A stretch of DNA of 42,297 bases from the UHGV virus genome UHGV-1359479; one strand, 5' to 3'. The DNA comes from a virus. A program made the position numbers and the translations under genes. This document shows, piece by piece, positions 3,758-42,297 of the stretch. Numbering within the stretch: position 1 is the first letter of the stretch; each line of letters begins with the position of its first letter. The notes beneath the pieces are model-generated. The model was not told where the DNA came from, did not search any database, and saw only the letters and a list, made by a program, of their open reading frames with translations.

Positions 3758-3991
3758 TTAAAAATCTGTGCCGACAGTGAACATCATCCCCGACACTACG
3801 AGGATGGTGCCCACCCAAGCGGCGGCGGCGATCGTAGTGGTGATGTACTCGATGATCCGCTCGCGGCGCGTGCGGCGCGCCTGCATAGCCATCTGCCAGG
3901 CAAAGGCTCTGCGGCCTTCGCGCACCGTCCGGCTCTCAATGGAAGAGAGAAGGGCTGAGGCGTCCTGAAAACGGTCATATGCGGTGTACAT
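3758..3991 (-). CDS. small protein with a C-terminal hydrophobic segment, 77 aa
   Basis: ORF with a C-terminal TM-like stretch, TTTIAAAAWVGTILVVSGMMF. Confidence 0.4.
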   Translation of the reverse strand: MYTAYDRFQDASALLSSIESRTVREGRRAFAWQMAMQARRTRRERIIEYITTTIAAAAWVGTILVVSGMMFTVGTDF

Positions 3992-4007: not shown

Positions 4008-4295
4008 TTAGCCGACCGTGATTATGTTATTGGCTGAAAAACGGTATTCGGCAGCATGGGCCTTGTCGGTCACCACAGCATCGATGCCGTCGAAGATCGC
4101 CTGGGATACGGCATGAGAGATGGCGGCTGCACTTATTGGGATGACACTCTTCTCCGCGTCCCACATGATGTAGTCCCTGATTCTGGCGATGAAGTTGTTG
4201 AGCACCGTCTCGTCGACGATCTCATCGTTTGGGTGCTCCTTCCTGAAGGCCTTGGCGGCATCGTCGGGGAGAGCGTAGGAAAGCATATAACGCAT
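4008..4295 (-). CDS. hypothetical protein, 95 aa, the first gene downstream of the putative PL
   Basis: ORF with an AAGAGG RBS. Confidence 0.5.
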   Translation of the reverse strand: MRYMLSYALPDDAAKAFRKEHPNDEIVDETVLNNFIARIRDYIMWDAEKSVIPISAAAISHAVSQAIFDGIDAVVTDKAHAAEYRFSANNIITVG

Positions 4296-4299
4296 GGGC

Positions 4300-4388
4300 G
4301 ATTTACCTCTTATATGTTCGTTGATTTCTTTTTATTAAAATTTAAATAAATAAGCAAGGAAAAGTTGAAGTTTTGGTAATTCGGGCAC
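4300..4388 (-). promoter_or_regulatory. putative leftward early promoter and operator region (PL/OL analogue)
   Basis: AT-rich intergenic DNA. It contains the 10-mer CCTTGCTTAT (minus sense, 4359..4350), which is also present at 5716-5725 in the cI/cro intergenic region. Confidence 0.35.
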
Positions 4389-4415
4389 AAAAAAAGGCCG
4401 ACGCTAGGCCGGCCC
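4389..4415 (-). terminator. rho-independent terminator ending the cI-moron transcript
   Basis: The GC hairpin GGGCCGGCC..GGCC is followed by a U7 run on the minus strand. It lies directly after the stop of the 4441..5067 gene. Confidence 0.5.
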
Positions 4416-4440
4416 AAAGTTTTGACGAAAAGCCTAAGGC

Positions 4441-5067
4441 TTATTTTGGACGCCCATCATAAAAATCCTGCAGGGCTCCGTCCCATACGCTCGTCGCTGA
4501 TCCCTGCGTCGTTAAGCACATCATCTCCATCTGGCCAAGCATACGATTTGCGGTTTCTCTTATCGCAGGGGGAAAGACTTCATCGTTCTCGCAAAAATAA
4601 TCAGGATGGTTCTCAACGAGGTATTCAATGCGAAAACTTTCTAGTTGATCATCTGCACGAGAATCATCATGGAATATTGTCGAATCATTAATAAGGCTAT
4701 TGTGGAGTTTTTCTTCTTTATTTCTTAAATAGTTTCTTCCAAAAATGATATATTCAAAATAGCTTTTTGCGTCATTTACAAAGTAAGAATCGATATACGG
4801 CATTTTGTATTTATTTAATGTATTTATTATTTTCTTTTTATAAATTTTCCACCAATAAAAATGACGCAGTAATTCTACAATAATTGCATTAGTTATTACA
4901 TATGAAAACACTATTTCTATAGAAAACAGAAGTATATGATATGCATCATCTGTGTGCGGCAAAATTCTAAAGTAGCTAAAGCAAAAAGAGACCAATAATA
5001 TACTAAATACTGGACCTAATAATATGCTGGCCAATAATCTTAGTGACGAAAACTTAGGCATAAACAC
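4441..5067 (-). CDS. AT-rich membrane protein, 208 aa, with two N-terminal TM helices and a roughly 140-aa soluble domain. It sits in the rexAB position downstream of cI and is a candidate superinfection-exclusion or abortive-infection protein.
   Basis: Markedly lower GC than the genome. It is co-oriented with the CI repressor and immediately downstream of it, and it has its own terminator. It shows no recognisable catalytic motif. Confidence 0.6.
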   Translation of the reverse strand: MFMPKFSSLRLLASILLGPVFSILLVSFCFSYFRILPHTDDAYHILLFSIEIVFSYVITNAIIVELLRHFYWWKIYKKKIINTLNKYKMPYIDSYFVNDAKSYFEYIIFGRNYLRNKEEKLHNSLINDSTIFHDDSRADDQLESFRIEYLVENHPDYFCENDEVFPPAIRETANRMLGQMEMMCLTTQGSATSVWDGALQDFYDGRPK

Positions 5068-5082
5068 ATCCTTTGCGTAAGC

Positions 5083-5715
5083 TCACACCGTCTGCAACAC
5101 CCACACGACCTGCCCGAGAACTGTTTTCTCCTGCTCGGCTGGATTGACCCGGACGGGCTTGTATTTCGGATTATCCGAGCACAGCAGAAGGTCCCCGTCT
5201 TCAGACAGTTTCAGTCGCTTCACGACCCGGCCAAAATACGGAATGGACACCAAATAAATTCCACCCTCTGTGACATCCTCGGAGAGCGGTGCAATGCCAA
5301 CGATCGCCCCGTCCTTAATCGTCGGCTCCATCGAATTCCCCCGGACAGTCAAAGCCACCATATCATTTCTGTAAAACTGGGGAAGAATTCGGATGACGGT
5401 GTCAGCTGTACCGTACAGCTCCTGCGGAGCCCCTGCTCCAGTCTCACCCATAAGGGGAACGGCCGGCAGGGTGTCCTTTGCGCTGGAGATGTTCTTTTCT
5501 CCTCCAGGCCCATAAAAATTTTCAACGCCGAGAGCGTCGGCAATAGCACCAACATTGTCCAGGGACGGCGATTTGGTTGTTCCGTTGATTATCTGGCTGA
5601 GTGAGCTCTGACGGATGCCGGCCTGCTCGGCGAAAGCTGACTGCCACCCACGTTCCTGACTCCGCTGCTTTAGAAGTTGGAAAAATCGGTCTTTGAATTT
5701 CATTTTGGCCTCCAT
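5083..5715 (-). CDS. CI-like repressor with an N-terminal XRE HTH and a C-terminal LexA/S24 autopeptidase. The start may instead be MKFKD at 5703.
   Basis: The HTH segment is QIINGTTKSPSLDNVGAIADALG. The S24 motif is GNSMEPTI, with Lys in VKRLK. Confidence 0.8.
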   Translation of the reverse strand: MEAKMKFKDRFFQLLKQRSQERGWQSAFAEQAGIRQSSLSQIINGTTKSPSLDNVGAIADALGVENFYGPGGEKNISSAKDTLPAVPLMGETGAGAPQELYGTADTVIRILPQFYRNDMVALTVRGNSMEPTIKDGAIVGIAPLSEDVTEGGIYLVSIPYFGRVVKRLKLSEDGDLLLCSDNPKYKPVRVNPAEQEKTVLGQVVWVLQTV

Positions 5716-5802
5716 CCTTGCTTATACATATTTAGATAATCGGCGCAAATTTAATTCAAATATACCTTGCATAAATATAGGAATTTTTATATTTAAAAAT
5801 CC
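5716..5802. promoter_or_regulatory. divergent cI/cro control region, the OR/PR/PRM analogue
   Basis: An AT-rich 87-bp intergenic region lies between the divergent repressor genes. It contains CCTTGCTTAT at 5716-5725 and the inverted repeat AAATATA-N8-TATATTT. Confidence 0.5.
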
Positions 5803-6030
5803 ATGGATGAAAAAACGCTAAGAGAAGCTCTTCGGGTGATGCTCGACAGTGGAGCCACTCAGCAGGAAATCGCCGACAAGGCCGGGCTATCCCAGAACTG
5901 CATCAGCCGGTTCCTGCACGGCACTAACGACATCTCGCTCTCGAGGGGTTTGAGATTAATGAAAGTTGTCTTGGAAGAACAAACGAAAAGTGTGGAGCCT
6001 CCGCCCAAGGAGGACTGCGATGCCCAGTGA
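5803..6030 (+). CDS. Cro-like HTH regulator, 75 aa
   Basis: The HTH segment is QQEIADKAGLSQNCISRFLHG. It is divergent from the CI-like repressor. Confidence 0.7.
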   Translation: MDEKTLREALRVMLDSGATQQEIADKAGLSQNCISRFLHGTNDISLSRGLRLMKVVLEEQTKSVEPPPKEDCDAQ

Positions 6031-12729: not shown

Positions 12730-13053
12730 ATGAAAATCATGATTAGTCAGCCTATGGCGGGAAAAGAATACGACGAAGTTTTGCGGGAGAGAGAAAAAAC
12801 AGTCCGGAAACTGGAGGCCATGGGCCACACGGTGGCGGATACCGTCCTGATGGTTGAACCGCCGGATGAAGGCAATGTGCGCCTTTTTTATCTCTCTTAC
12901 TCTCTAAACCTGATGTCTCAGTGTGACGGGGTTCTCTTCCTTCCCGGCTGGGAGGAAGCCCGCGGGTGCCGTATCGAGCATGAAGCCGCCGTGGGCTACG
13001 ACCTGAAGGTTTTTTACTCTCTGGACGAAGTGAAGGAGGCCTCCCATGACTAG
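12730..13053 (+). CDS. DUF4406 / nucleoside 2-deoxyribosyltransferase-like protein
   Basis: Has the C-terminal GWEEARGCRIEHEAAVGYDL motif. Confidence 0.45.
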   Translation: MKIMISQPMAGKEYDEVLREREKTVRKLEAMGHTVADTVLMVEPPDEGNVRLFYLSYSLNLMSQCDGVLFLPGWEEARGCRIEHEAAVGYDLKVFYSLDEVKEASHD

Positions 13054-13393
13054 GCAGGAGTGTCTTGACGCCGCCGCTAAGGCGGTTCTTACAGACAGGG
13101 CCCGTGAGTACGGGCATCCCGAAGACAGCTTCGGTCTTATCGCGGCCCTCTGGAGCCGCTACACAGGGTGCGACATCTCCACCGCGGATGTAGCCGCCAT
13201 GATGATCCTCCTGAAGCTCGCCCGCGTGGAGGGGAACCCCAGGCATGCGGACAGCTGGGTGGATATAGCCGGGTACGCGGCATGTGGAGCTGAGTGCGCT
13301 GCCGCTATGTCCGGATGCGAGCGCGTAGGCGGTGTGGACTATGCCCCGGGGCGTATAGCCCCGAAGACGGGCCGGGAGGATAGCGATGAATAG
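13046..13393 (+). CDS. hypothetical phage protein (DUF6378-like)
   Basis: ORF with the pattern HPEDSFGLIAALWSRY...DVAAMMILLKLAR. Confidence 0.35.
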   Translation: MTRQECLDAAAKAVLTDRAREYGHPEDSFGLIAALWSRYTGCDISTADVAAMMILLKLARVEGNPRHADSWVDIAGYAACGAECAAAMSGCERVGGVDYAPGRIAPKTGREDSDE

Positions 13394-13670
13394 CATTATC
13401 ACTGTCATGAGGACGGTTACTGATCTGGGGGCTAGTGAGTGTGATCTGTTGGTGGCGCTGGCCGACCGCGTGAAGGCCGCGGAGAATAAGCATCCCGACT
13501 TCTCCGATGGGATATACCAGGGAGTAGGTGTCATCGGCGAAGAGTACGGGGAGCTTTGTCAGGCGCTGAACAAAAATCAGGGGGAGGAGCGTGTCATGGA
13601 TGAGGCGCTTGACCTGCTCTGTGTCGTCTGGCGCTTCTGCCGGGGAGACTGGAGGCAGAAGAAGTGCTGA
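13386..13670 (+). CDS. MazG-like all-alpha nucleotide pyrophosphohydrolase (small)
   Basis: Paired EE..GEL and E..DEALDLL motifs. Confidence 0.4.
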   Translation: MNSIITVMRTVTDLGASECDLLVALADRVKAAENKHPDFSDGIYQGVGVIGEEYGELCQALNKNQGEERVMDEALDLLCVVWRFCRGDWRQKKC

Positions 13671-15075: not shown

Positions 15076-15654
15076 ATGAGCGAAGCCGCATACCTCAAAG
15101 CATTGAAGTTTACGTTCGCCCACGAGGGCGAGTACTCCAATGACCCGACAGACTCAGGCGGGCCCACTAAATGGGGGGTAAGCCAGCAGTCGATCAATGA
15201 CATGCTGGCCTCTGACTCCGCCTTCCTGCGGTCGATTGGCATCACCTCGTCTTCGGTAGCCGCGATGAAGCAGATTACCAGAGACCAGGCTGCAGCCATC
15301 TTTCGCCATGAGCACTGGGAGCCGCTCAGGTGCGACGCTATGCCTGACAGTATCGCCATCGCCGTTTTCGACTTTGGGATGAACGCCGGGAATCACCAGT
15401 CCATCCGCACGCTCCAGCGGGCCTTTAACCGGACCCATGTCGGAGAAGGGCTCCTTTCCGTCGATGGCTACATCGGACCGAATACGCTAAGGGCGGCCGC
15501 ACAGATGGATAACTCCAGAGACATAAGGCTCCTTCTTGATGCGAGGCAGGATTTCTATGACGGCCTCGTGGCTAAGAAACCCCGGAAGTACAGCCCCTTC
15601 ATCCGTGGCTGGACAAAGCGGGTCAATGACCTCCGGAAGTATCTGGGGGTGTGA
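15076..15654 (+). CDS. endolysin: GH108 lysozyme domain plus a peptidoglycan-binding domain
   Basis: FAHEGEYSNDPTDSGGPTKWGV is the GH108 N-terminal signature. Confidence 0.8.
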   Translation: MSEAAYLKALKFTFAHEGEYSNDPTDSGGPTKWGVSQQSINDMLASDSAFLRSIGITSSSVAAMKQITRDQAAAIFRHEHWEPLRCDAMPDSIAIAVFDFGMNAGNHQSIRTLQRAFNRTHVGEGLLSVDGYIGPNTLRAAAQMDNSRDIRLLLDARQDFYDGLVAKKPRKYSPFIRGWTKRVNDLRKYLGV

Positions 15655-15655
15655 C

Positions 15656-15976
15656 GTGCGGCTCGTGATTATCAGCTACGCCCTGCTTGTCTCAGTATGC
15701 TGCGCTCTCTGGTGGGGGCTCCATCAGACACGGCAGGAGCTCGAGGCGTGCAGGGCTGAGCTCGGAGCTGTGCAGGAGCAAAAAGAGATGCTTGCTGATG
15801 CCATGAAGGCAAGGAGAGAAGCTGATGAGCAGGCCGATAAAAGAACTTCTCAGACAGAGCAGGCTCTGGACCGTAATCGCGACTGGTCTCAGTGTCCTCT
15901 GCCTGATGACATCGTGCGCACCCTCAACGAAGCCTGTATGTCCGGCCCCGCCTCTGGAACTGCTGGCTCCCATTGA
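15656..15976 (+). CDS. i-spanin (Rz-like) with a GTG start
   Basis: N-terminal TM (VRLVIISYALLVSVCCALWW) followed by a coiled coil. Confidence 0.55.
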   Translation: MRLVIISYALLVSVCCALWWGLHQTRQELEACRAELGAVQEQKEMLADAMKARREADEQADKRTSQTEQALDRNRDWSQCPLPDDIVRTLNEACMSGPASGTAGSH

Positions 15977-16100
15977 GCTGCCCGACCGCAGCCAGGCTAA
16001 GACGCAGGGCGACCTCGTCAGGCTGCTTGTGGAAGACCAGAACGCCATCGAGCGGAAGAACGCGGACCTCGGCGTTTTAAGGGAGTACTACTCAAAGTGA
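15825..16100 (+). CDS. o-spanin (Rz1-like lipoprotein), starting inside the i-spanin gene in the +1 frame
   Basis: A signal peptide with the lipobox LMTSC, and a proline-rich body. Confidence 0.55.
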   Translation: MSRPIKELLRQSRLWTVIATGLSVLCLMTSCAPSTKPVCPAPPLELLAPIELPDRSQAKTQGDLVRLLVEDQNAIERKNADLGVLREYYSK

Positions 16101-16639
16101 TGCCGCCGTCCTCCAGCACCCTGTCCGTCGACTGGTCCTATTATGTGCAGACGCTCTCTAGCGGCGGATATATTAAGGGCCTGATTGCCTGCTGTACCTG
16201 GTTCGCATCTCTGACCGGTATAGCCATAGAGGTGTATGCTATCTGTCTCTGTCTGTGCGTTGTGGATATGGTGCTGGGTACCTACGCCGCCATCAGGCAG
16301 GGGAGGTTCTCCCTGCGTATCTTCCAGCGCGGCGTCATGAAGTTCATCGTGTATGGCGTGTACATCCTCGTCGCCGCAGCTGTGCAGATTGTGCTGTCGA
16401 GGACGATCAGCATCGAAGTCCCGATGGTCGGATGGATTATCGCGTATCTTGGTGCCAATGATGCCTTGTCAATAATGGCCAACGCAAGAAATCTTGGGTG
16501 GCCGATGCCTAAGCTATTCCAGACTATTATTGTTCGGGTAACTCATGGTGTTGAGAAGCATGCGATGAGCGCTCTTGATGTAATCGACACAAAAGATACA
16601 GACGAACACAAGGGATACTGCAATGGCAAAAAGCGCTGA
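16097..16639 (+). CDS. holin (4-TM phage holin family)
   Basis: Four hydrophobic segments. CVVDMVLGTYAAIRQGRFS resembles the holin family 4_1. Confidence 0.55.
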   Translation: MMPPSSSTLSVDWSYYVQTLSSGGYIKGLIACCTWFASLTGIAIEVYAICLCLCVVDMVLGTYAAIRQGRFSLRIFQRGVMKFIVYGVYILVAAAVQIVLSRTISIEVPMVGWIIAYLGANDALSIMANARNLGWPMPKLFQTIIVRVTHGVEKHAMSALDVIDTKDTDEHKGYCNGKKR

Positions 16640-36644: not shown

Positions 36645-37115
36645 TGGCAACTACGAATCATGATTTACAGGAAACGATTGAATTGGCAGTAAAACTTGCC
36701 GTTCAGCAGGCAAAACTTGATATGTGTCCCATTGGTAAAATTTGGCCCACCTTCGGTGATGAAAACCCTGCTGATGTAGTGGGGGGGGGTATGGGAGAAA
36801 CTGAAGACGTATCATCTGCAGTGCTCTGACGATAAGCACACTGCTGGTGATATTATAGAGGCTGGACTGCCTAACATAAAAAGTGAGGGAGGCCCCCACG
36901 TGTACCAATACACACCTGGTGGCGGTTCGGCTAGTCTTAATTCAGGATGCCTTACATGGAGCAGCAACGGCGGCGGCGTCAACACTGACAACTATTCAAA
37001 CACGGGTTCGGGTAAGTTTTATATAGACGCATCAAAATCAAACGCAATTTATGGCAAATCAGATACAGTACAGCCATATAGTATTGTGCTGAATGTATGG
37101 AGAAGAATTGAATGA
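36644..37115 (+). CDS. phase-variable gene copy 2. A 61-aa N-terminal ORF (36644-36829) contains a G9 tract (36781-36789). The downstream frame is open over 36780-37115. A one-G deletion would fuse them into a ~157-aa protein.
   Basis: Frames were checked by hand. It is paralogous to copy 1 (WxKL...LQCxDDxHxAG...EAGLPxI ... VWRRIE). Confidence 0.55.
36781..36789 (+). repeat. G9 homopolymer, a slippage switch
   Basis: Seen in the sequence. Confidence 0.9.
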
Positions 37116-37570
37116 AAGATATAACTGATACAATTAATCTACTTATAAAGCATATTGCGAACATCGACTCTAAAACCGTACACCTTGACGGTGCAGAGAC
37201 TGTAACAGGCGACAAGGCCTTCACGGGTGGCGTTACTGTGGGCGGGTATGAGCCGGAATGCGTAGTGGATAAAGGCGAGGGCTACATACGGTATAGTAGT
37301 GGGTTGCAAATGTGTTTTGGCGATGTAGCAGCGATAAAAGCGGCAAATGTTAACAACGCAAATGTTACAATTGCATACGCAAAACCTTTTACCCGCGTTG
37401 CATCTGTGCAGTTAACAAGCAAACAATTCAATTATTACAGTAGTTTTGCACATAGAGTTGAGACAGATACAAACAATATTAATTGTGATTGGTGGACAGA
37501 TAACTCCAACATTATGGCGGTAGCTATAACCTGCTACGGGTTTTATCTGGCTATCGGTTTTTGGAAATAA
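37112..37570 (+). CDS. AT-rich tail-fibre-locus protein, 152 aa
   Basis: The LDGAETVTGDKAFTGGVTV motif is shared with other fibre-locus proteins. Confidence 0.5.
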   Translation: MKDITDTINLLIKHIANIDSKTVHLDGAETVTGDKAFTGGVTVGGYEPECVVDKGEGYIRYSSGLQMCFGDVAAIKAANVNNANVTIAYAKPFTRVASVQLTSKQFNYYSSFAHRVETDTNNINCDWWTDNSNIMAVAITCYGFYLAIGFWK

Positions 37571-37583
37571 AGAGGTATCAGTC

Positions 37584-39395
37584 ATGGCGGCGGATTTCGC
37601 GAAACCGAATCTTGGTAACAAAATAAAAACAGACGTCCCGGGTATTTTTGATATTCTCCAGACACTTGCCACAGGCGCGCTGTCCGGGACGATAAACACC
37701 CCAACCGGTGCGCTTAATTTTTATGTAGACGGCAACAATAACTTAAAAATCCAGAGACTGGACGCTAGCGGGGCGTGGGTAGATATACCCCAGCTCAAAA
37801 ATGATGCAGATACGGTAGACGGATACCACGCTTCCACCAGCACCACCAAGAGCACAATCCCCGTCAGGGACAGCAACGGCAATCTTCCAGGCTCCATCAC
37901 GGGTAACGCGCCCACGGCCACCAAGGCGCAGCAGCTTACGGATGTAAACCCCGTAGCCATGGGCGGAACGGGAGCGTCCACGGCCGCTGACGCACGAACG
38001 AACCTTGGCGTGCCGCCTATCAGCCACGCGTCCGTAGCCACCACCTATGGCGTCTCCACAGATAAGGCCTATGGCCACGCGAAGGCTACGGGCACGACGC
38101 CCAAAAAAGACAGTCTGGCAGGAACAGTGGGGAACGAGACGTCCACCTTCGCCCGAGGGGATCATCAGCATCCCCGTGCAGTCTTCTTCGGGACATGCAC
38201 GACGGCACTCGATACGCCCGCCAAGGTAGTATCCATCCCCGACTTCATTCCGTCTGAAGGGGCCTTCGCCCTCATCAGGTACATCCCCGAGGCCACCCGC
38301 ACGGTGACGACCAAGGCGGAAGACGGCACAGAGACGACTTCCACTCTGACGCTGAAGGCGACATCAGACCCGCTCACGCTCTCGGTGAATGCCGGGACAG
38401 CGCTCCCCATCCGGACATCCGGAGGGCAGGTCATCGGCACGGAGCTTATCTCCGGAGGCACGTATCTTTTTGTGTACGCGGGGGACGCGTACCTCTACGC
38501 AGGAGGAACCAAGCTCGCGAATGAACCGGCTGGGGCAGTTCTCTCCGATCTGACGAAGGGGACTGCTCCGGATACGCTACGGGCGCCATCCATCGCCGTG
38601 TACGACAAGACCGGAGCGGAGATCGGAACGCTGACCCTCAAAGTCGGCACAGATAACTCCACATCCCTGTCCCTAAACGTCCACCCCGGCACCGAGGCCG
38701 GCTCCCCCACACAGACTGGCACGATCGAGGTCGGCTACGACGCCTCCGGTTCAGTGTACACAGCGGCCCCGACCCCTGCCACGCAAGACAAATCTACGAA
38801 GATCGCCACCACCGAGTATGTCAATGACAACGCCTGCATGCTATACGGCGATCAGACCATCGCCGGAGCCAAAACTTACGCGTCCCCGCTGACCTGCACG
38901 GATCTCATCTCGGGAAAAAGACTCACCCTTAACAACGGCGTAAACAGCAACCTGGATTTCTGCGCTAACAACGTGACTTCCGGCGGCGCTTATCTTGCAG
39001 GCAGTTCCATGGCCAGTAATACATGGAAACAGATTGCCCTGCTGGAGGATGCTGAGTCCGTGGCCACATCGAAAGCCGCGGCATGGTCGCGCGACAGACA
39101 GATGGCTCCGGACGGAACCAAGTGGGGCTTCGATTCGGATACGACCTACACGGCGCCGAATAACGGATTTATCAGGATCGAGGACGTGAATCGGCATAAT
39201 ACCGTGAACACCTATGTGCTGAACATCAATGGCGGCGTAGCGATGCGCGTTACAGCGTCAGGGTATGGATCGGGCGGCCAGCATGGCGGGATCGACGTGT
39301 GCTACCCCATACGTGGCGGATGGACGTACAGCGTATGGCGCGAAGCTGGTGACAGCTGGCCTAACTGTATGGAGTTTATTCGATGCTACTTCTAG
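37584..39395 (+). CDS. tail fibre protein, 603 aa
   Basis: Thr/Gly/Ala-rich beta-structure repeats in the fibre locus, upstream of the assembly chaperone. Confidence 0.7.
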   Translation: MAADFAKPNLGNKIKTDVPGIFDILQTLATGALSGTINTPTGALNFYVDGNNNLKIQRLDASGAWVDIPQLKNDADTVDGYHASTSTTKSTIPVRDSNGNLPGSITGNAPTATKAQQLTDVNPVAMGGTGASTAADARTNLGVPPISHASVATTYGVSTDKAYGHAKATGTTPKKDSLAGTVGNETSTFARGDHQHPRAVFFGTCTTALDTPAKVVSIPDFIPSEGAFALIRYIPEATRTVTTKAEDGTETTSTLTLKATSDPLTLSVNAGTALPIRTSGGQVIGTELISGGTYLFVYAGDAYLYAGGTKLANEPAGAVLSDLTKGTAPDTLRAPSIAVYDKTGAEIGTLTLKVGTDNSTSLSLNVHPGTEAGSPTQTGTIEVGYDASGSVYTAAPTPATQDKSTKIATTEYVNDNACMLYGDQTIAGAKTYASPLTCTDLISGKRLTLNNGVNSNLDFCANNVTSGGAYLAGSSMASNTWKQIALLEDAESVATSKAAAWSRDRQMAPDGTKWGFDSDTTYTAPNNGFIRIEDVNRHNTVNTYVLNINGGVAMRVTASGYGSGGQHGGIDVCYPIRGGWTYSVWREAGDSWPNCMEFIRCYF

Positions 39396-39859
39396 CTGCC
39401 GGCTGTCCGGCCACCGGGAAAAGCCACTACGCACGCATACTCCTTTCTGGGATCAGGGTTATCGAGTTCGACGAGTGGGCATGCATGTGGTACGGCGTTC
39501 CATTCGTTGATGCTATGGACAAGTATTCTGCTGAATATCCTAAAAGTCAGCATGAATATTTCAATGAGATAGGTATCCAATACCTACAATATGGAGATAT
39601 TGTTGTGTGTGATACATTCACATACAGGAAAGACAGGTTAGATTTTTTGGAATACATGAATGCAAAATTCAATATTCCAAAGAATAAAATATGTATTAAA
39701 TATCTAGTTTCGGCATATCCTTTGATAAAAAAGCGCAATCAGGAACGTAAAACTGTCCTTCCAGAGAATGTTCTTCTCACAATGTACTACAATCAGCAGT
39801 ACCCCGTCGCCGATGAAGGCTTCGGTAAAGTGGAGATAGTATCAAATGAGTATCAATAA
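39383..39859 (+). CDS. T4 Pnk-like polynucleotide 5'-kinase domain protein (P-loop only, no phosphatase domain); AT-rich moron
   Basis: Walker A is GCPATGKSH, against T4 Pnk GCPGSGKST. IVVCDTFTYRKDRLDF matches VIISDTNLNPERRLAW, and LPENVLLTMY matches VPIDVLRSMY. Confidence 0.55.
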   Translation: MLLLAAGCPATGKSHYARILLSGIRVIEFDEWACMWYGVPFVDAMDKYSAEYPKSQHEYFNEIGIQYLQYGDIVVCDTFTYRKDRLDFLEYMNAKFNIPKNKICIKYLVSAYPLIKKRNQERKTVLPENVLLTMYYNQQYPVADEGFGKVEIVSNEYQ

Positions 39860-40325
39860 CATTCAGGATATGGAATCCGCGGCGGAGTCTTATCCGGCCG
39901 CGATGTTCGCTCATGACACGGTCTACCTGAAGATCATGAGTGACGGCACTGTCCGGGCTCTCGCCGATAAAGCCACGGTGAATGCTCCTGTAGAGTACGG
40001 CGGGGGCGGCGGCTCATACGATATGGAAATATCTACAGAAACATGGAAGGAAAGCGAATATACCGCCCGCGTCCGCAACGGGAAAATCGTCCTCGGGAAG
40101 ACTCAGGATGAGAAGCAGTCAGAGTGGGAAGCGGCCATCAGGGCGGAGCGGGATCGCCGTCTCCGCCTGTGCGACAAGATGTCCCCCATGCGCTGGAACG
40201 TCCTTACAGAGGAAGAGCGCGCTACGTGGGCGGCGTATCGTCAGGCGCTTCTCGATATCCCCGAGCAGGACGGGTTCCCGTGGGGCGGGGTGGTGGATAG
40301 CGCGCCATGGCCGGAGATCCCGTAA
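39846..40325 (+). CDS. tail fibre assembly chaperone (Caudo_TAP-like)
   Basis: The C-terminal pattern is RATWAAYRQALLDIPEQDGFPWGGVVDSAPWPEIP. Confidence 0.6.
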   Translation: MSINNIQDMESAAESYPAAMFAHDTVYLKIMSDGTVRALADKATVNAPVEYGGGGGSYDMEISTETWKESEYTARVRNGKIVLGKTQDEKQSEWEAAIRAERDRRLRLCDKMSPMRWNVLTEEERATWAAYRQALLDIPEQDGFPWGGVVDSAPWPEIP

Positions 40326-40333
40326 AACATAAA

Positions 40334-40364
40334 AGCCCTTTGGGGTATCCCAATGGGCTTTTTT
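40334..40364 (+). terminator. rho-independent terminator of the rightward late transcript
   Basis: The hairpin GCCCTTTGGGG..CCCAATGGGC is followed by T6. Confidence 0.6.
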
Positions 40365-40403
40365 ATAAAAAATTCCCCGGCAGAAGTGCGTGACCTCTGC
40401 CGG
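40365..40403 (-). terminator. rho-independent terminator of the leftward transcript, convergent with the plus-strand terminator
   Basis: A hairpin with an 8-bp stem, CCGGCAGA/TCTGCCGG (40377-40403), is followed on the minus strand by a U-rich run. Confidence 0.5.
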
Positions 40404-40470
40404 GCTGTGCGGCGGTCTCTCCGGTCTGCACCTGACGCTTGGTGCATCGTGGTGCAAAATTTTGTTTAAG

Positions 40471-40680
40471 TTACTGAATTAATTTAAAAGTCCATGCTCC
40501 ACTGCGGATGAGGGCCGCCGCACTCTCAGCAGATATCGTTTTTCTGCGGACAGGTCTACGGGTGGCAGTCACCTCGAGGATGTCGTCCTGCCTGGCTTCG
40601 AGGCGTTCAATGGCCTTCTTGTGCTCGATAATCTCCAACCGGATTTTCCGCAGCTCGGTAATTTCACTCACTCCGTCCAT
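40471..40680 (-). CDS. hypothetical small protein, ~69 aa, with an internal start of a longer ORF
   Basis: The start is coupled to the upstream gene stop. Confidence 0.35.
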   Translation of the reverse strand: MDGVSEITELRKIRLEIIEHKKAIERLEARQDDILEVTATRRPVRRKTISAESAAALIRSGAWTFKLIQ

Positions 40681-41174
40681 ATGCCCTCCAGTTTCGGATT
40701 CTTCCTTGGCGAGGCGTGGCAGTGCCAGATGCGGGCGGCTTCTTCGGCCTCTGCCTGATGGGTCAGGTAGAGACGGTCCGAGGTGAGGCCGATGATATGC
40801 TTCACCTTCAGCCAGAGCTCCGGCCTCTTCTTCCATGACCCTCCGTAGTAGAGGGCATCGGCGTAGGCCTCATCCCCAAGGAACCACATCACGCACCACG
40901 CGGAGTAGGCCTCGACCCGCGTCTGGCTGTGCGCGGCGTCATAAGCATCTATGGCGTCGGCGGCCGCCTCACACGCGGCCTTCATGTCACGGCGCTCTCC
41001 AGCGGTGAAGGCTCCGACCTCCAGAAGTCCCTGTATCTCCATGAGGGCCTTCTGCACCTCGATGAGGCGGGCCGGCTTCTTCTTCCAGTCTGGATACTTC
41101 TCGAGGGCGACAAGCGGGAAAGACACGCCTATGCAGCAGTCGCGGTGAGCGATGGAGTTACCTGGGCATCTCAT
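40668..41174 (-). CDS. hypothetical protein, 168 aa
   Basis: ORF in the leftward operon. Confidence 0.45.
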   Translation of the reverse strand: MRCPGNSIAHRDCCIGVSFPLVALEKYPDWKKKPARLIEVQKALMEIQGLLEVGAFTAGERRDMKAACEAAADAIDAYDAAHSQTRVEAYSAWCVMWFLGDEAYADALYYGGSWKKRPELWLKVKHIIGLTSDRLYLTHQAEAEEAARIWHCHASPRKNPKLEGIWTE

Positions 41175-41427
41175 CGCGTCCTCCCTGCATCTTCATGGCC
41201 TCAGCTACGAGGGCTGATATGGCCGTCTCCATAGCCTTCCTTGTATCCATCCCCCCTTCGAGGATGGCCATCAGGGCGTGAGTGAAGTTCTGTGCTATCA
41301 GTCTGTAGTCCATCCCTTCCGGTATGTAAGTGAAGACTCTTCCCTCATCCATGGCTATGACAGCCCTCTGCCTTTTCTTGTCGTTGATGTAGGGCCATAC
41401 GGCCCGCGCCAGCTCCTTCGCTGTCAT
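41158..41427 (-). CDS. hypothetical protein, ~89 aa, with an ATGA overlap onto the RdgC-like stop
   Basis: ORF. Confidence 0.4.
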   Translation of the reverse strand: MTAKELARAVWPYINDKKRQRAVIAMDEGRVFTYIPEGMDYRLIAQNFTHALMAILEGGMDTRKAMETAISALVAEAMKMQGGRDEMPR

Positions 41428-42297
41428 GCCAGCACCTCCCCCATCCACTTCATCATCTCACCCGTCGTCTTCTTCCACTTGTCCTCGTCGAGCCGGAGGC
41501 CGAGGAACTGACGGTAGAGGCTGTCCAGGAGGGTAACGGCGGTTTCGATGAGAAAGGCCTTTTCCAGGAAGAGCGCATCCGGATCATCATCACGGTCGGG
41601 TTTGTCAATCTTGGGTGTCTTCAGGCTGTTGAGGGAAAAGTCAGCGGCCTTCACGGAAACATCGAACCCGAAGTCGTCCTTTGTGAGATGGATGAGGGCG
41701 CTGGTGACCTTCTTGCCGCGGCGGAGTCCGAGGCGGGCCTCCAGCAGAGAATCGCCCGGGACCCACGTCGCCATGGACGTGGTTTCCCGATCGGTCCCGC
41801 AAAAGCCGGTCACGGTCACGCGCTTTTCCATGGAAACCTGAAAGGGCTGGGCGTTGCCAGCGCGGAAAAATGTCGAGACGACATCTGACCTGAACCAGAG
41901 CCAGGTGAGGAAGTCTCGTCCCAGGCTTCCGTCGAAGGACTCATCCACTTCGTCGGCGTCGTGGATAGCCTCTTCGGACTCTTTCCCGAGCATGGACAGT
42001 GCCAGATACCTCGGGATTTGCTGCTCAATGTGCAGCTTGAAGGTGGCGAGAAAGCGCTGGACAAAGAGCTCGAGCATTTTTGTCTGCGTGGAGGCGAACC
42101 AGATTTCGTTGTTCTCGGTGTTCCAGATGACGTTGAACTCTCCGGGCACGGGCAGAAAGCGCCTGCGCAGGGAAAGCTGCACCTGTTCCTTCAGTTCTTT
42201 GCGGCGTTCGCGGGAAATGAATTTCTTCCCGTTCTTCTCGTTTTCCGCCTTTTCCCGCTTCAGCGCGAGATCGAGGTACTTGCGGACAACGCCCGCG
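41424..42297 (-). CDS. rdgC: RdgC-like recombination-associated protein, C-terminal part. It is open to the window edge, with no stop upstream of the listed Met.
   Basis: The C-terminal segment DALFLEKAFLIETAVTLLDSLYRQFLGL resembles the RdgC C-terminus. The frame continues to 42297 and joins 251..1. Confidence 0.5.
   Translation of the reverse strand, partial: AGVVRKYLDLALKREKAENEKNGKKFISRERRKELKEQVQLSLRRRFLPVPGEFNVIWNTENNEIWFASTQTKMLELFVQRFLATFKLHIEQQIPRYLALSMLGKESEEAIHDADEVDESFDGSLGRDFLTWLWFRSDVVSTFFRAGNAQPFQVSMEKRVTVTGFCGTDRETTSMATWVPGDSLLEARLGLRRGKKVTSALIHLTKDDFGFDVSVKAADFSLNSLKTPKIDKPDRDDDPDALFLEKAFLIETAVTLLDSLYRQFLGLRLDEDKWKKTTGEMMKWMGEVLA

Follow-up and report, generated by a model that had tools for sequence, protein, structure and literature searches.

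Genes linked to the repressors of prophages are a proven source of anti-phage functions, among them Rex, Nun, Stk, SieA, BstA and the actinophage systems. To our knowledge, almost no such repressor-linked systems have been described for strictly anaerobic gut bacteria, for example Desulfovibrio. Here we consider a gene, referred to as X, that lies directly behind the CI-type repressor gene (cI) in the virus genome UHGV-1359479, analyzed as one stretch of 42,297 nucleotides (nt; hereafter the window). X is predicted to encode an inner-membrane protein, and a role in superinfection exclusion (Sie) or abortive infection (Abi) appears the most plausible one, by analogy and from the way the gene evolves.

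Several well-described systems offer points of comparison. T4 Imm and HK97 gp15 are small, mostly membrane-embedded inner-membrane proteins that block genome entry. The inner-membrane protein SieA of phage P22 blocks DNA transfer across the inner membrane and exists as three types that are <30% identical, all sharing one transmembrane (TM) layout and, on the cytoplasmic side, a conserved motif (PMC10883804). In lambda (rexAB) and in the Gordonia phage CarolAnn (genes 43/44), defence genes are co-transcribed with the repressor (PMC6426606). PdpSau of Staphylococcus aureus has an N-terminal TM helix and affects membrane potential and permeability upon infection (PMC10127798).

In gene order, the closest parallels are lambda cI-rexA-rexB and CarolAnn 45-44-43. 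There, as at this locus, a membrane protein is encoded promoter-distal to the repressor on the same strand, with termination before the leftward early promoter, and the likeness would extend to expression in the lysogen. The original prediction, made from the sequence alone, had placed X in the "rexAB position" of a cI-rexA-rexB-terminator-PL layout, and as anatomy this is sound. X shares with RexAB a place promoter-distal to cI that ends before PL, but RexAB comprises two genes and a four-TM RexB, whereas X is a single gene encoding two TM helices and a 140-residue soluble domain. RexB and CarolAnn gp43 have four TM helices, work with a separate DUF4747 sensor, which in lambda is the cytoplasmic RexA, and show no sequence similarity to X. 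The elements of the locus are, in the direction of transcription:

5083..5715, minus strand: CI-type repressor, with HTH_3 and Peptidase_S24 (E 6e-21) domains; PHROG 4, "transcriptional repressor"; directly upstream of X
5069..5074, minus strand: Shine-Dalgarno (SD) sequence AAAGGA, inside the cI-X gap, with a 7-nt spacer to ATG 5061
5065..5067, minus strand: GTG codon, two codons upstream of ATG 5061 and just 1 nt past the SD
4441..5061, minus strand: gene X, 206-amino-acid (aa) orphan membrane protein (ATG 5061-5059, TAA 4443-4441), defined by its open reading frame (ORF), gene calls on public contigs, substitution ratios and base composition
4389..4415, minus strand: intrinsic terminator, GGGCCGGCC-loop-GGCCT stem followed by T7, conserved, predicted to end the cI-X transcript
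4329..4360, minus strand: candidate early-left (PL-like) promoter including TCCTTGCTTAT, with -35 element TTGCTT (4357-4352), a 17-nt spacer and TAAAAA (4334-4329)

X follows cI on the same strand, as predicted, with 21 nt between the cI TGA and the X ATG. The longest ORF at this place (4441..5067, minus strand) gives 208 aa when begun at the GTG, the product first proposed. That reading frame stands, but the start was misplaced: the GTG is probably not used because it lies so close to the SD, and gene callers begin X at the ATG in >20 public contigs, each time yielding 206 aa. ATG 5061 is thus the likely true start. A combined sigma-70 and terminator scan found no promoter-like or terminator-like site in the 21-nt gap, although the sigma-70 scan also missed other expected phage promoters and its sensitivity for this host is doubtful. 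A promoter for X within the gap is in any case unlikely, because the gap leaves no room for one. We infer that cI and X are co-transcribed.

The hairpin-U7 terminator claimed to lie behind X is indeed there. Its stem-loop (4415-4395, minus strand) begins 25 nt past the X stop codon and has an 8-bp stem with six GC pairs, followed by T7 at 4395-4389; the predicted folding energy is -15.4 kcal/mol (z = -1.7). The hairpin is kept in all relatives, including those with other X alleles and a relative, L011, that has no X. An Rfam search returned only a sub-threshold match to the suhB/mmgR small RNAs (4380-4447, minus strand; 25.4 bits against a gathering score of 41, E 0.02). It spans the X stop codon and the terminator, whose hairpin and U-tract are its most likely cause.

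The X frame is not a chance opening. At 34% GC about 7% of random codons would be stops, and by a rough estimate 206 codons would stay open with P ~1e-7. Two small genes downstream serve as references for its evolution:

4008..4295, minus strand: ORF95, first gene past the terminator and promoter, without a family match
3758..3991, minus strand: ORF77, small C-terminally anchored membrane protein of the early-left operon, kept in all relatives including the X-less L011

Against alleles that are 86-87% identical, the ratio of nonsynonymous to synonymous substitution rates (dN/dS) of X is 0.19-0.21, with similar values in the TM, middle and C-terminal parts, which indicates purifying selection. 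The synonymous divergence (dS) of X from its nearest alleles, 0.30-0.35, equals that of its flanks (0.25-0.36 for the C-terminal domain of cI, 0.35-0.54 for ORF95), so X appears to have diverged together with the phage backbone. In every intact copy X sits directly behind a CI-type repressor and ahead of the same terminator.

X occurs in three types, those of the window, of protein clusters P0003/P0008 and of cluster P0009, which are only 34-45% identical to one another. Even at 34% identity the alleles keep the same length, topology and motifs, and indels come in multiples of three. In the same phages, the cI C-terminal domain is 78-98% and ORF77 71-88% identical; exonuclease and RecT, further along the early-left operon, are 92-96% identical in most relatives and only 27-68% in L023, L024 and L028. 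The most divergent part of X is the TM hairpin (20-27% identity). P0009 is a natural chimera, with a TM region 90% identical to that of P0008 and a middle part closest to the window type (58%). P0009-type X is found with two different cI DNA-binding domains, so the X type is not locked to the immunity type. The identical window X protein is borne by phages that differ in their packaging, lysis and recombination modules, which indicates that the cI-X block moves as a unit. Divergent types and a swapped TM hairpin amid conserved flanks would be, by analogy, behavior typical of exclusion genes.

The nearest parallel to this behavior is P22 SieA, an inner-membrane protein that is likewise small, encoded by one gene and carried by a temperate phage with a Gram-negative host. 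Both SieA and X come in several types under 30-45% identical among related phages, and both keep the TM layout and a conserved cytoplasmic segment. In contrast to X, SieA has three to four TM helices in 162-164 aa, its soluble part is small, and it lies in immI rather than behind the repressor. The SieA motif FxRYPxEAxxFNK (PMC10883804) is absent from the 206-aa X protein, and there is no sequence or profile match between the two, so X does not belong to the SieA family.

With the X protein and two profiles as queries, we carried out a word-indexed search of 5.8 billion proteins, complemented by an exhaustive phmmer search of 1.84 billion representatives. The whole X family amounts to seven 90%-identity clusters of intact proteins plus two clusters of fragments (P0004, P0005), and every one of these comes from the same position in a single phage lineage; no relatives outside this lineage, for example in host chromosomes, were found by these searches. 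GTDB species genomes contain no X relative (cI gave only an unrelated S24 match), INPHARED phages gave neither DNA nor protein matches, and IMG/VR and JGI metagenomes returned the same lineage only. We considered whether the two fragment clusters represent chromosomal X genes and rejected this, as they stem from a chimeric assembly (L017/L025) and a frameshift (L018). In the former, a low-coverage metagenome contig (L017/L025:1-600), the first 113 codons of a P0009-type X are joined at an A-run to the zinc-ribbon N-terminus of accD; this is almost certainly an assembly chimera with accD from an AT-rich bacterium.

The window X protein has no significant match in Pfam-A, PHROGs v4, NCBIfam 20, PADLOC-DB 2.0 or PDB sequences, and nothing in Pfam or PADLOC at E<=1. 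The best profile matches of any family member are PADLOC PDLC00705 (E 0.062) and PHROG 23792 (E 0.32). PDLC00705 models the "2TM" effector of the cyclic oligonucleotide-based anti-phage signaling system (CBASS); it matches one of seven members, at 11 bits and over most of that allele's length, which is chance level after multiple testing. No CD-NTase cyclase lies beside X in ~40 loci, where the neighbors are cI and either ORF95 or a HicAB pair. With so weak a match in a single member and a cyclase never adjacent, we rejected X as a CBASS 2TM effector.

The prediction of two N-terminal TM helices followed by a cytoplasmic domain of ~140 aa agrees with hydropathy and charges:

4969..5037, minus strand: TM helix 1, residues ~9-31 (Kyte-Doolittle 19-aa windows up to 2.4; helix 7-30 in the AlphaFold2 model)
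4867..4935, minus strand: TM helix 2, residues ~43-65 (hydropathy and charge distribution)
residues 32-42, between the two TM helices: predicted periplasmic loop, 11 aa, about neutral
4444..4866, minus strand: cytoplasmic domain, residues 66-206, ~140 aa (alignment of seven sequences, AlphaFold2, isoelectric point)

The N-terminus carries a charge of +2, the loop is about neutral, and +7 follows directly after TM helix 2. This positive-inside pattern argues for a hairpin with both ends inside, and thus a predicted N-in/C-in topology with a tail of ~140 aa in the cytoplasm. Residues 66-86 form a basic juxtamembrane helix with seven K/R, and residues 87-206 an acidic helical bundle with an isoelectric point (pI) of 4.5. 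The AlphaFold2 model, built from the seven-sequence alignment, is all-helical (predicted local distance difference test score, pLDDT, 67; predicted template modeling score, pTM, 0.56). In it, TM helix 2 runs on as the long juxtamembrane helix and leads into a bundle of four to five helices, with a disordered, indel-prone linker at residues 126-140. Conserved cytoplasmic motifs are MPY(I/V)xSY, D(I/A)KSYxEYI (DxKSYxEYI), DYF, RMLGxxE (RxLGxxE) and WDxALxxFY. The cytoplasmic domain had been described as devoid of recognizable motifs, in keeping with the blank library searches, and fold searches with the model found nothing above generic helices. The structure prediction and remote-homology search proposed as a check of the defence role therefore neither support nor refute it.

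Two variants of the protein were considered and set aside. A lipoprotein was rejected, since a canonical lipobox is absent and the cysteine is not conserved. Met87-Pro88 (codon 87 at 4801-4803), where the soluble domain begins, does not vary among the alleles, and in frameshifted X copies the gene calls begin at Met87; internal initiation there, giving a soluble product in the manner of sieB/esc, is unsupported, as no allele has an SD at this place.

X is an accessory gene. In L011, whose cI is 74% and whose exonuclease and RecT are 92-93% identical to those of the window, only a 31-aa ORF lies between cI and the same terminator, and ORF95 is missing together with X. In relatives with P0009-type X, namely L014-L016 (~1720-2550) and L018 (2655-3477), a HicA/HicB toxin-antitoxin pair takes the place of ORF95 directly behind X, and L018 has a SecB-like gene as well. 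The region after cI is a cargo hotspot. X is also frameshifted in some relatives, in L027 (10645-11265) by A7 to A6 and in L018 (1921-2540) by A8 to A9 (+1), and truncated forms of 120 aa occur in at least four contigs from different samples. These homopolymer indels could be a sign of decay, of assembly polymorphism or of on/off switching by slippage; the allele of the window contains no run of this kind. The 120-aa ORF of L027 was first taken as different cargo, a reading rejected because it is X with a 1-nt deletion in the A7 run. ORF95 was weighed as a co-evolving partner or self-immunity factor, which is unsupported given that ORF95 types shuffle independently of X types. A role for X as antidote to ORF77 is ruled out by L011, which keeps ORF77 without X.

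The base composition of X had been noted as far below that of the rest of the genome, and it is: 34.1% GC (32% at third codon positions, GC3) against 56.9% for the genome, while cI has a GC3 of 61%. X is the lowest-GC 621-nt window of the genome (z = -4.4), and all X types are AT-rich (29-38% GC). Only the last ~45 codons have phage-like GC (50-57%). This GC-normal 3' end might suggest that an AT-rich insert was fused to what remained of an older backbone gene, a reading that is probably wrong as the gradient is common to all types; in the L011 slot, nothing credibly resembles the 3' end of X. An 89-aa TTG ORF antisense to it (4422-4691, plus strand) has no support and was taken as spurious. 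In L011 (6665-6760), on the strand opposite the 31-aa ORF, there is a 13-nt exact inverted match to the conserved KMPY codons of X, either a remnant or chance.

Is X then a horizontally acquired moron, as originally proposed? It resembles morons in the sense of Hendrix and Juhala in being an extra gene that is present or absent among colinear relatives (L011 lacks it), in its deviant composition (34% against 57% GC), in its conserved terminator and in its presumed prophage expression. Unlike them, it has no recognized promoter of its own in the 21-nt gap (with the doubt about scan sensitivity given above) and appears to ride the cI transcript. Accessory status and foreign composition thus stand, but recent import does not: the dS equals that of the flanks, divergent alleles occupy one slot, all are equally AT-rich, and no donor was found among the 5.8 billion proteins. 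These features mark X as an old resident of the phage lineage. We speculate that its AT-richness is maintained or that the AT-rich two thirds arose locally. Codons for F, I, L, K, N and Y abound in this part, and these easily produce TM helices.

Beyond the terminator, an AT-rich spacer carries TTGCTT-17 nt-TAAAAA (4357-4329, minus strand). The PL-like promoter predicted there is plausible: the -35-like element is conserved in position among relatives (TTGACA in L022), although the consensus sigma-70 scan gave no match. A further link comes from the region between cI and cro:

5716..5802: divergent cI/cro regulatory region, with TCCTTGCTTAT (5715-5725) and CCTTGCATA (5769-5777)
5803..6030, plus strand: Cro-like helix-turn-helix protein, divergent from cI

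The 11-mer TCCTTGCTTAT is common to this region and to the post-terminator spacer. More broadly, a CCTTGC(T/A)TA motif occurs twice between cI and cro (5715-5725 and 5769-5777, both plus strand) and once past the terminator (4360-4350, minus strand). The post-terminator copy is the perfect 11-mer, and every copy is oriented with early transcription, making this a candidate shared -35/operator element. We noted no obvious SD for cro (ATG 5803). Past the promoter, the early-left genes are ordered ORF95, ORF77, a 126-aa ORF, a PDDEXK exonuclease and RecT.

The likely host of this phage was approached through its lysis genes and through its relatives. The lysis cassette spans 15076-16639 and, in coordinates of the window, comprises:

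15076-15654: GH108 + PG_binding_3 endolysin
~15650-15976: i-spanin, with a TM segment and coiled coil
15825-16100: o-spanin lipoprotein with a proline-rich mature part, out of frame with and overlapping the i-spanin
16097-16639: Phage_holin_4_1 holin

The overlapping i-/o-spanin pair, GH108 endolysin and holin argue for a diderm host, and X is therefore predicted to reside in the inner membrane and to expose next to nothing to the periplasm. In L022 (16806-20513), the related prophage ends in a tyrosine integrase and adjoins DNA of 64-66% GC that encodes pilin-like proteins. In uninterrupted host contigs (L031-L033), the pilin-like gene lies near a type IVb pilus locus (PilS, T2SSE/F, SLT), and the same contigs encode a pertactin autotransporter and a flavodiiron protein. 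Two of the three named protein clusters of these contigs belong to Desulfovibrio sp. and one to Acidaminococcus massiliensis, the latter label being probably erroneous or transferred. Chromosomes of Desulfovibrio piger have 62.6-63.1% GC (PMC12724379). The relatives thus appear to be prophages in Desulfovibrio-like DNA, which points to a temperate phage of gut sulfate-reducing bacteria, with a gut Desulfovibrio as the most likely host.

What might X do? Our tentative preference, one possibility among several, is that X blocks superinfecting phages at the inner membrane by acting on genome entry. The operon slot, the topology, the diderm host and the SieA-like evolutionary behavior suggest this reading. 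X would belong, as an accessory gene, to the transcript that a temperate phage makes in lysogeny (the immunity transcript). Its translation would start at a ribosome-binding site of its own on the repressor-maintenance mRNA, which would run through cI and X and stop at the hairpin-T7 ahead of the early-left promoter. It would be made in lysogens and shut off upon induction. The protein would insert in the inner membrane as a two-helix hairpin with both ends cytoplasmic and ~11 residues in the periplasm, holding an acidic helical domain of ~120 residues beneath the basic juxtamembrane helix. It would most likely interfere with the channel that carries incoming phage DNA across the cytoplasmic membrane, as do P22 SieA, T4 Imm and HK97 gp15. 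The variable, recombining TM hairpin would then make contact with the invader, and a common anchoring or oligomerizing function would fall to the conserved cytoplasmic domain. X could work like the DNA-entry blockers T4 Imm, HK97 gp15 and the membrane protein of mycobacteriophage Charlie; unlike X, these lack a large conserved cytoplasmic domain and occupy other genomic positions, and they share no Pfam or PHROG homology with it.

Several points weigh against exclusion at genome entry. The positional argument is a prior rather than a test, and there is no homology or fold likeness to known Sie, Abi or other defence proteins. Two thirds of X lies in the cytoplasm, this portion is the best conserved, and the periplasmic loop is tiny; such an arrangement would suit a cytoplasmic sensor or binding protein no less than a blocker of a channel. 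Relaxed constraint on hydrophobic segments would likewise produce low identity in TM helices. The AlphaFold2 model is of moderate confidence only (pLDDT 67). X is dispensable and repeatedly frameshifted, and the window phage has no recognizable integrase, which bears on how frequently it exists as a stable prophage.

A doubtful but possible alternative is that X serves lysogenic conversion or the management of lysogeny, without a part in defence. It would alter host physiology (envelope stress, transport or signaling), or it would tether or sequester a factor that tunes repressor stability or induction. Prophage expression, membrane topology, accessory status and purifying selection are equally compatible with such a role, a basic regulator could be the ligand of the acidic cytoplasmic domain, and no library searched gave a defence-family signal. 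Many of the morons that lie close to repressors play no part in defence, and the non-defence morons bor and lom of lambda are located elsewhere in its genome. However, mosaic types at 34-45% identity amid flanks at 70-98% are more typical of conflict genes, the neighboring cargo in some relatives is a HicAB toxin-antitoxin pair, and the family is confined to this phage lineage rather than found in host chromosomes. Nor is X needed to neutralize ORF77, which L011 keeps although it lacks X.

An abortive-infection protein, the principal competitor as to mechanism, seems less likely still. Here X would be a one-protein sensor-effector whose soluble domain senses a product of the invader or a consequence of its presence, whereupon the TM hairpin oligomerizes or opens, the membrane potential collapses and the cell dies before progeny are made, with parallels in RexB with RexA, PifA, AbiP and S. 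aureus PdpSau. Both systems that share the operon position of X, lambda rexAB and CarolAnn 43/44, are Abi systems. The tiny periplasmic loop would suit this mode of action, as would the large, conserved, acidic cytoplasmic domain, whose many invariant aromatic and charged residues are appropriate to ligand or protein binding, yet a sensor that tracks triggers would be expected to evolve fastest and the soluble domain is the most conserved part. Prophage-encoded single membrane-anchored Abi proteins are known in PdpSau (PMC10127798). PdpSau and AbiP share with X prophage encoding, an N-terminal membrane anchor and a cytoplasmic C-terminal domain, and there a single gene suffices for defence, but they have one TM helix and a positively charged, OB-fold-like nucleic-acid-binding domain (PMC10127798), whereas X has two and an acidic, all-helical domain (pI 4.5). 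One allele weakly matches the PADLOC CBASS "2TM" model (E 0.062), but with one of seven members matching, at chance level, there is no significant likeness to Abi or effector models; no partner gene co-varies with X, ORF95 types shuffling independently, and no self-immunity element is evident.

That X is no functional protein gene but a chance or decaying frame in an AT-rich spacer whose DNA itself counts, for example by insulating the early-left promoter from the maintenance transcript, is highly improbable: extreme AT content in all alleles, circulating frameshifted copies and one relative without X would fit, but 206 codons stay open despite an expected stop frequency of ~7%, dN/dS is ~0.2 in all three gene regions, motifs are conserved at 34% identity with indels in multiples of three, the topology is the same in all types and the SD is properly spaced.

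Returning to exclusion and abortive infection, the defence function suggested for X draws on position, topology and evolutionary behavior, and its predicted membrane location on the protein sequence. A bolder proposal, which we put forward with considerable reserve, is that X defines a new family, confined to its lineage, of anti-phage determinants in gut Desulfovibrio phages that act as single inner-membrane proteins and are unrelated, in sequence as in fold, to described Sie or Abi proteins. Specificity would reside in an exchangeable two-helix module joined to a conserved acidic module, and the N-terminal two thirds would have arisen de novo from AT-rich regulatory DNA beside the repressor. 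De novo origin would be suggested by the persistence of 34% GC in a phage-host system of ~57-63% GC and by the lack of a relative among 5.8 billion proteins.

X is at present a well-defined candidate rather than a discovery, an orphan family that is new but fills a familiar niche. Specialists will not be surprised by a membrane moron behind cI; of interest are the lack of relatives elsewhere, the division into alleles and mosaics, a composition that is both extreme and persistent, and the understudied host. If X is a defence gene, it is a compact single-gene inner-membrane system with a natural allelic series and chimeras, useful for mapping specificity. Otherwise, it still ranks among the most compositionally aberrant, selectively maintained genes of these phages and may exemplify a gene that originated within one lineage. 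A 2025 study of prophage induction in D. piger found no sensitive hosts for the released phages and listed superinfection exclusion among the possible causes (PMC12724379).

Some features of the wider genome remain to be described. The source genome is a closed circle of 42,297 bp, as end-joining of the window indicates: positions 1-252 and 41424-42297 together form an intact 374-aa ORF colinear with L022 (14765-15889), where the counterpart has a weak RdgC-like match. Public contigs with the same genes are 42,416 bp long, which becomes 42,297 after subtraction of a 119-nt k-mer or assembly overlap. No integrase or other recombinase was recognized in the window genome, including 40325-42297. 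In L022, L027, L028 and L036 a tyrosine integrase closes the early-left operon; in the window this operon leads directly into the tail genes. Within the rightward early/replication block, a 260-aa ORF without a Pfam match lies on the opposite strand (12752-13534, minus strand) and is possibly another accessory gene. Two further low-GC islands, at 37013-37633 and 39444-40064 (40% and 43%), are found among unannotated late genes beside the tail assembly chaperone and are probably exchanged tail-fiber or receptor-binding modules.

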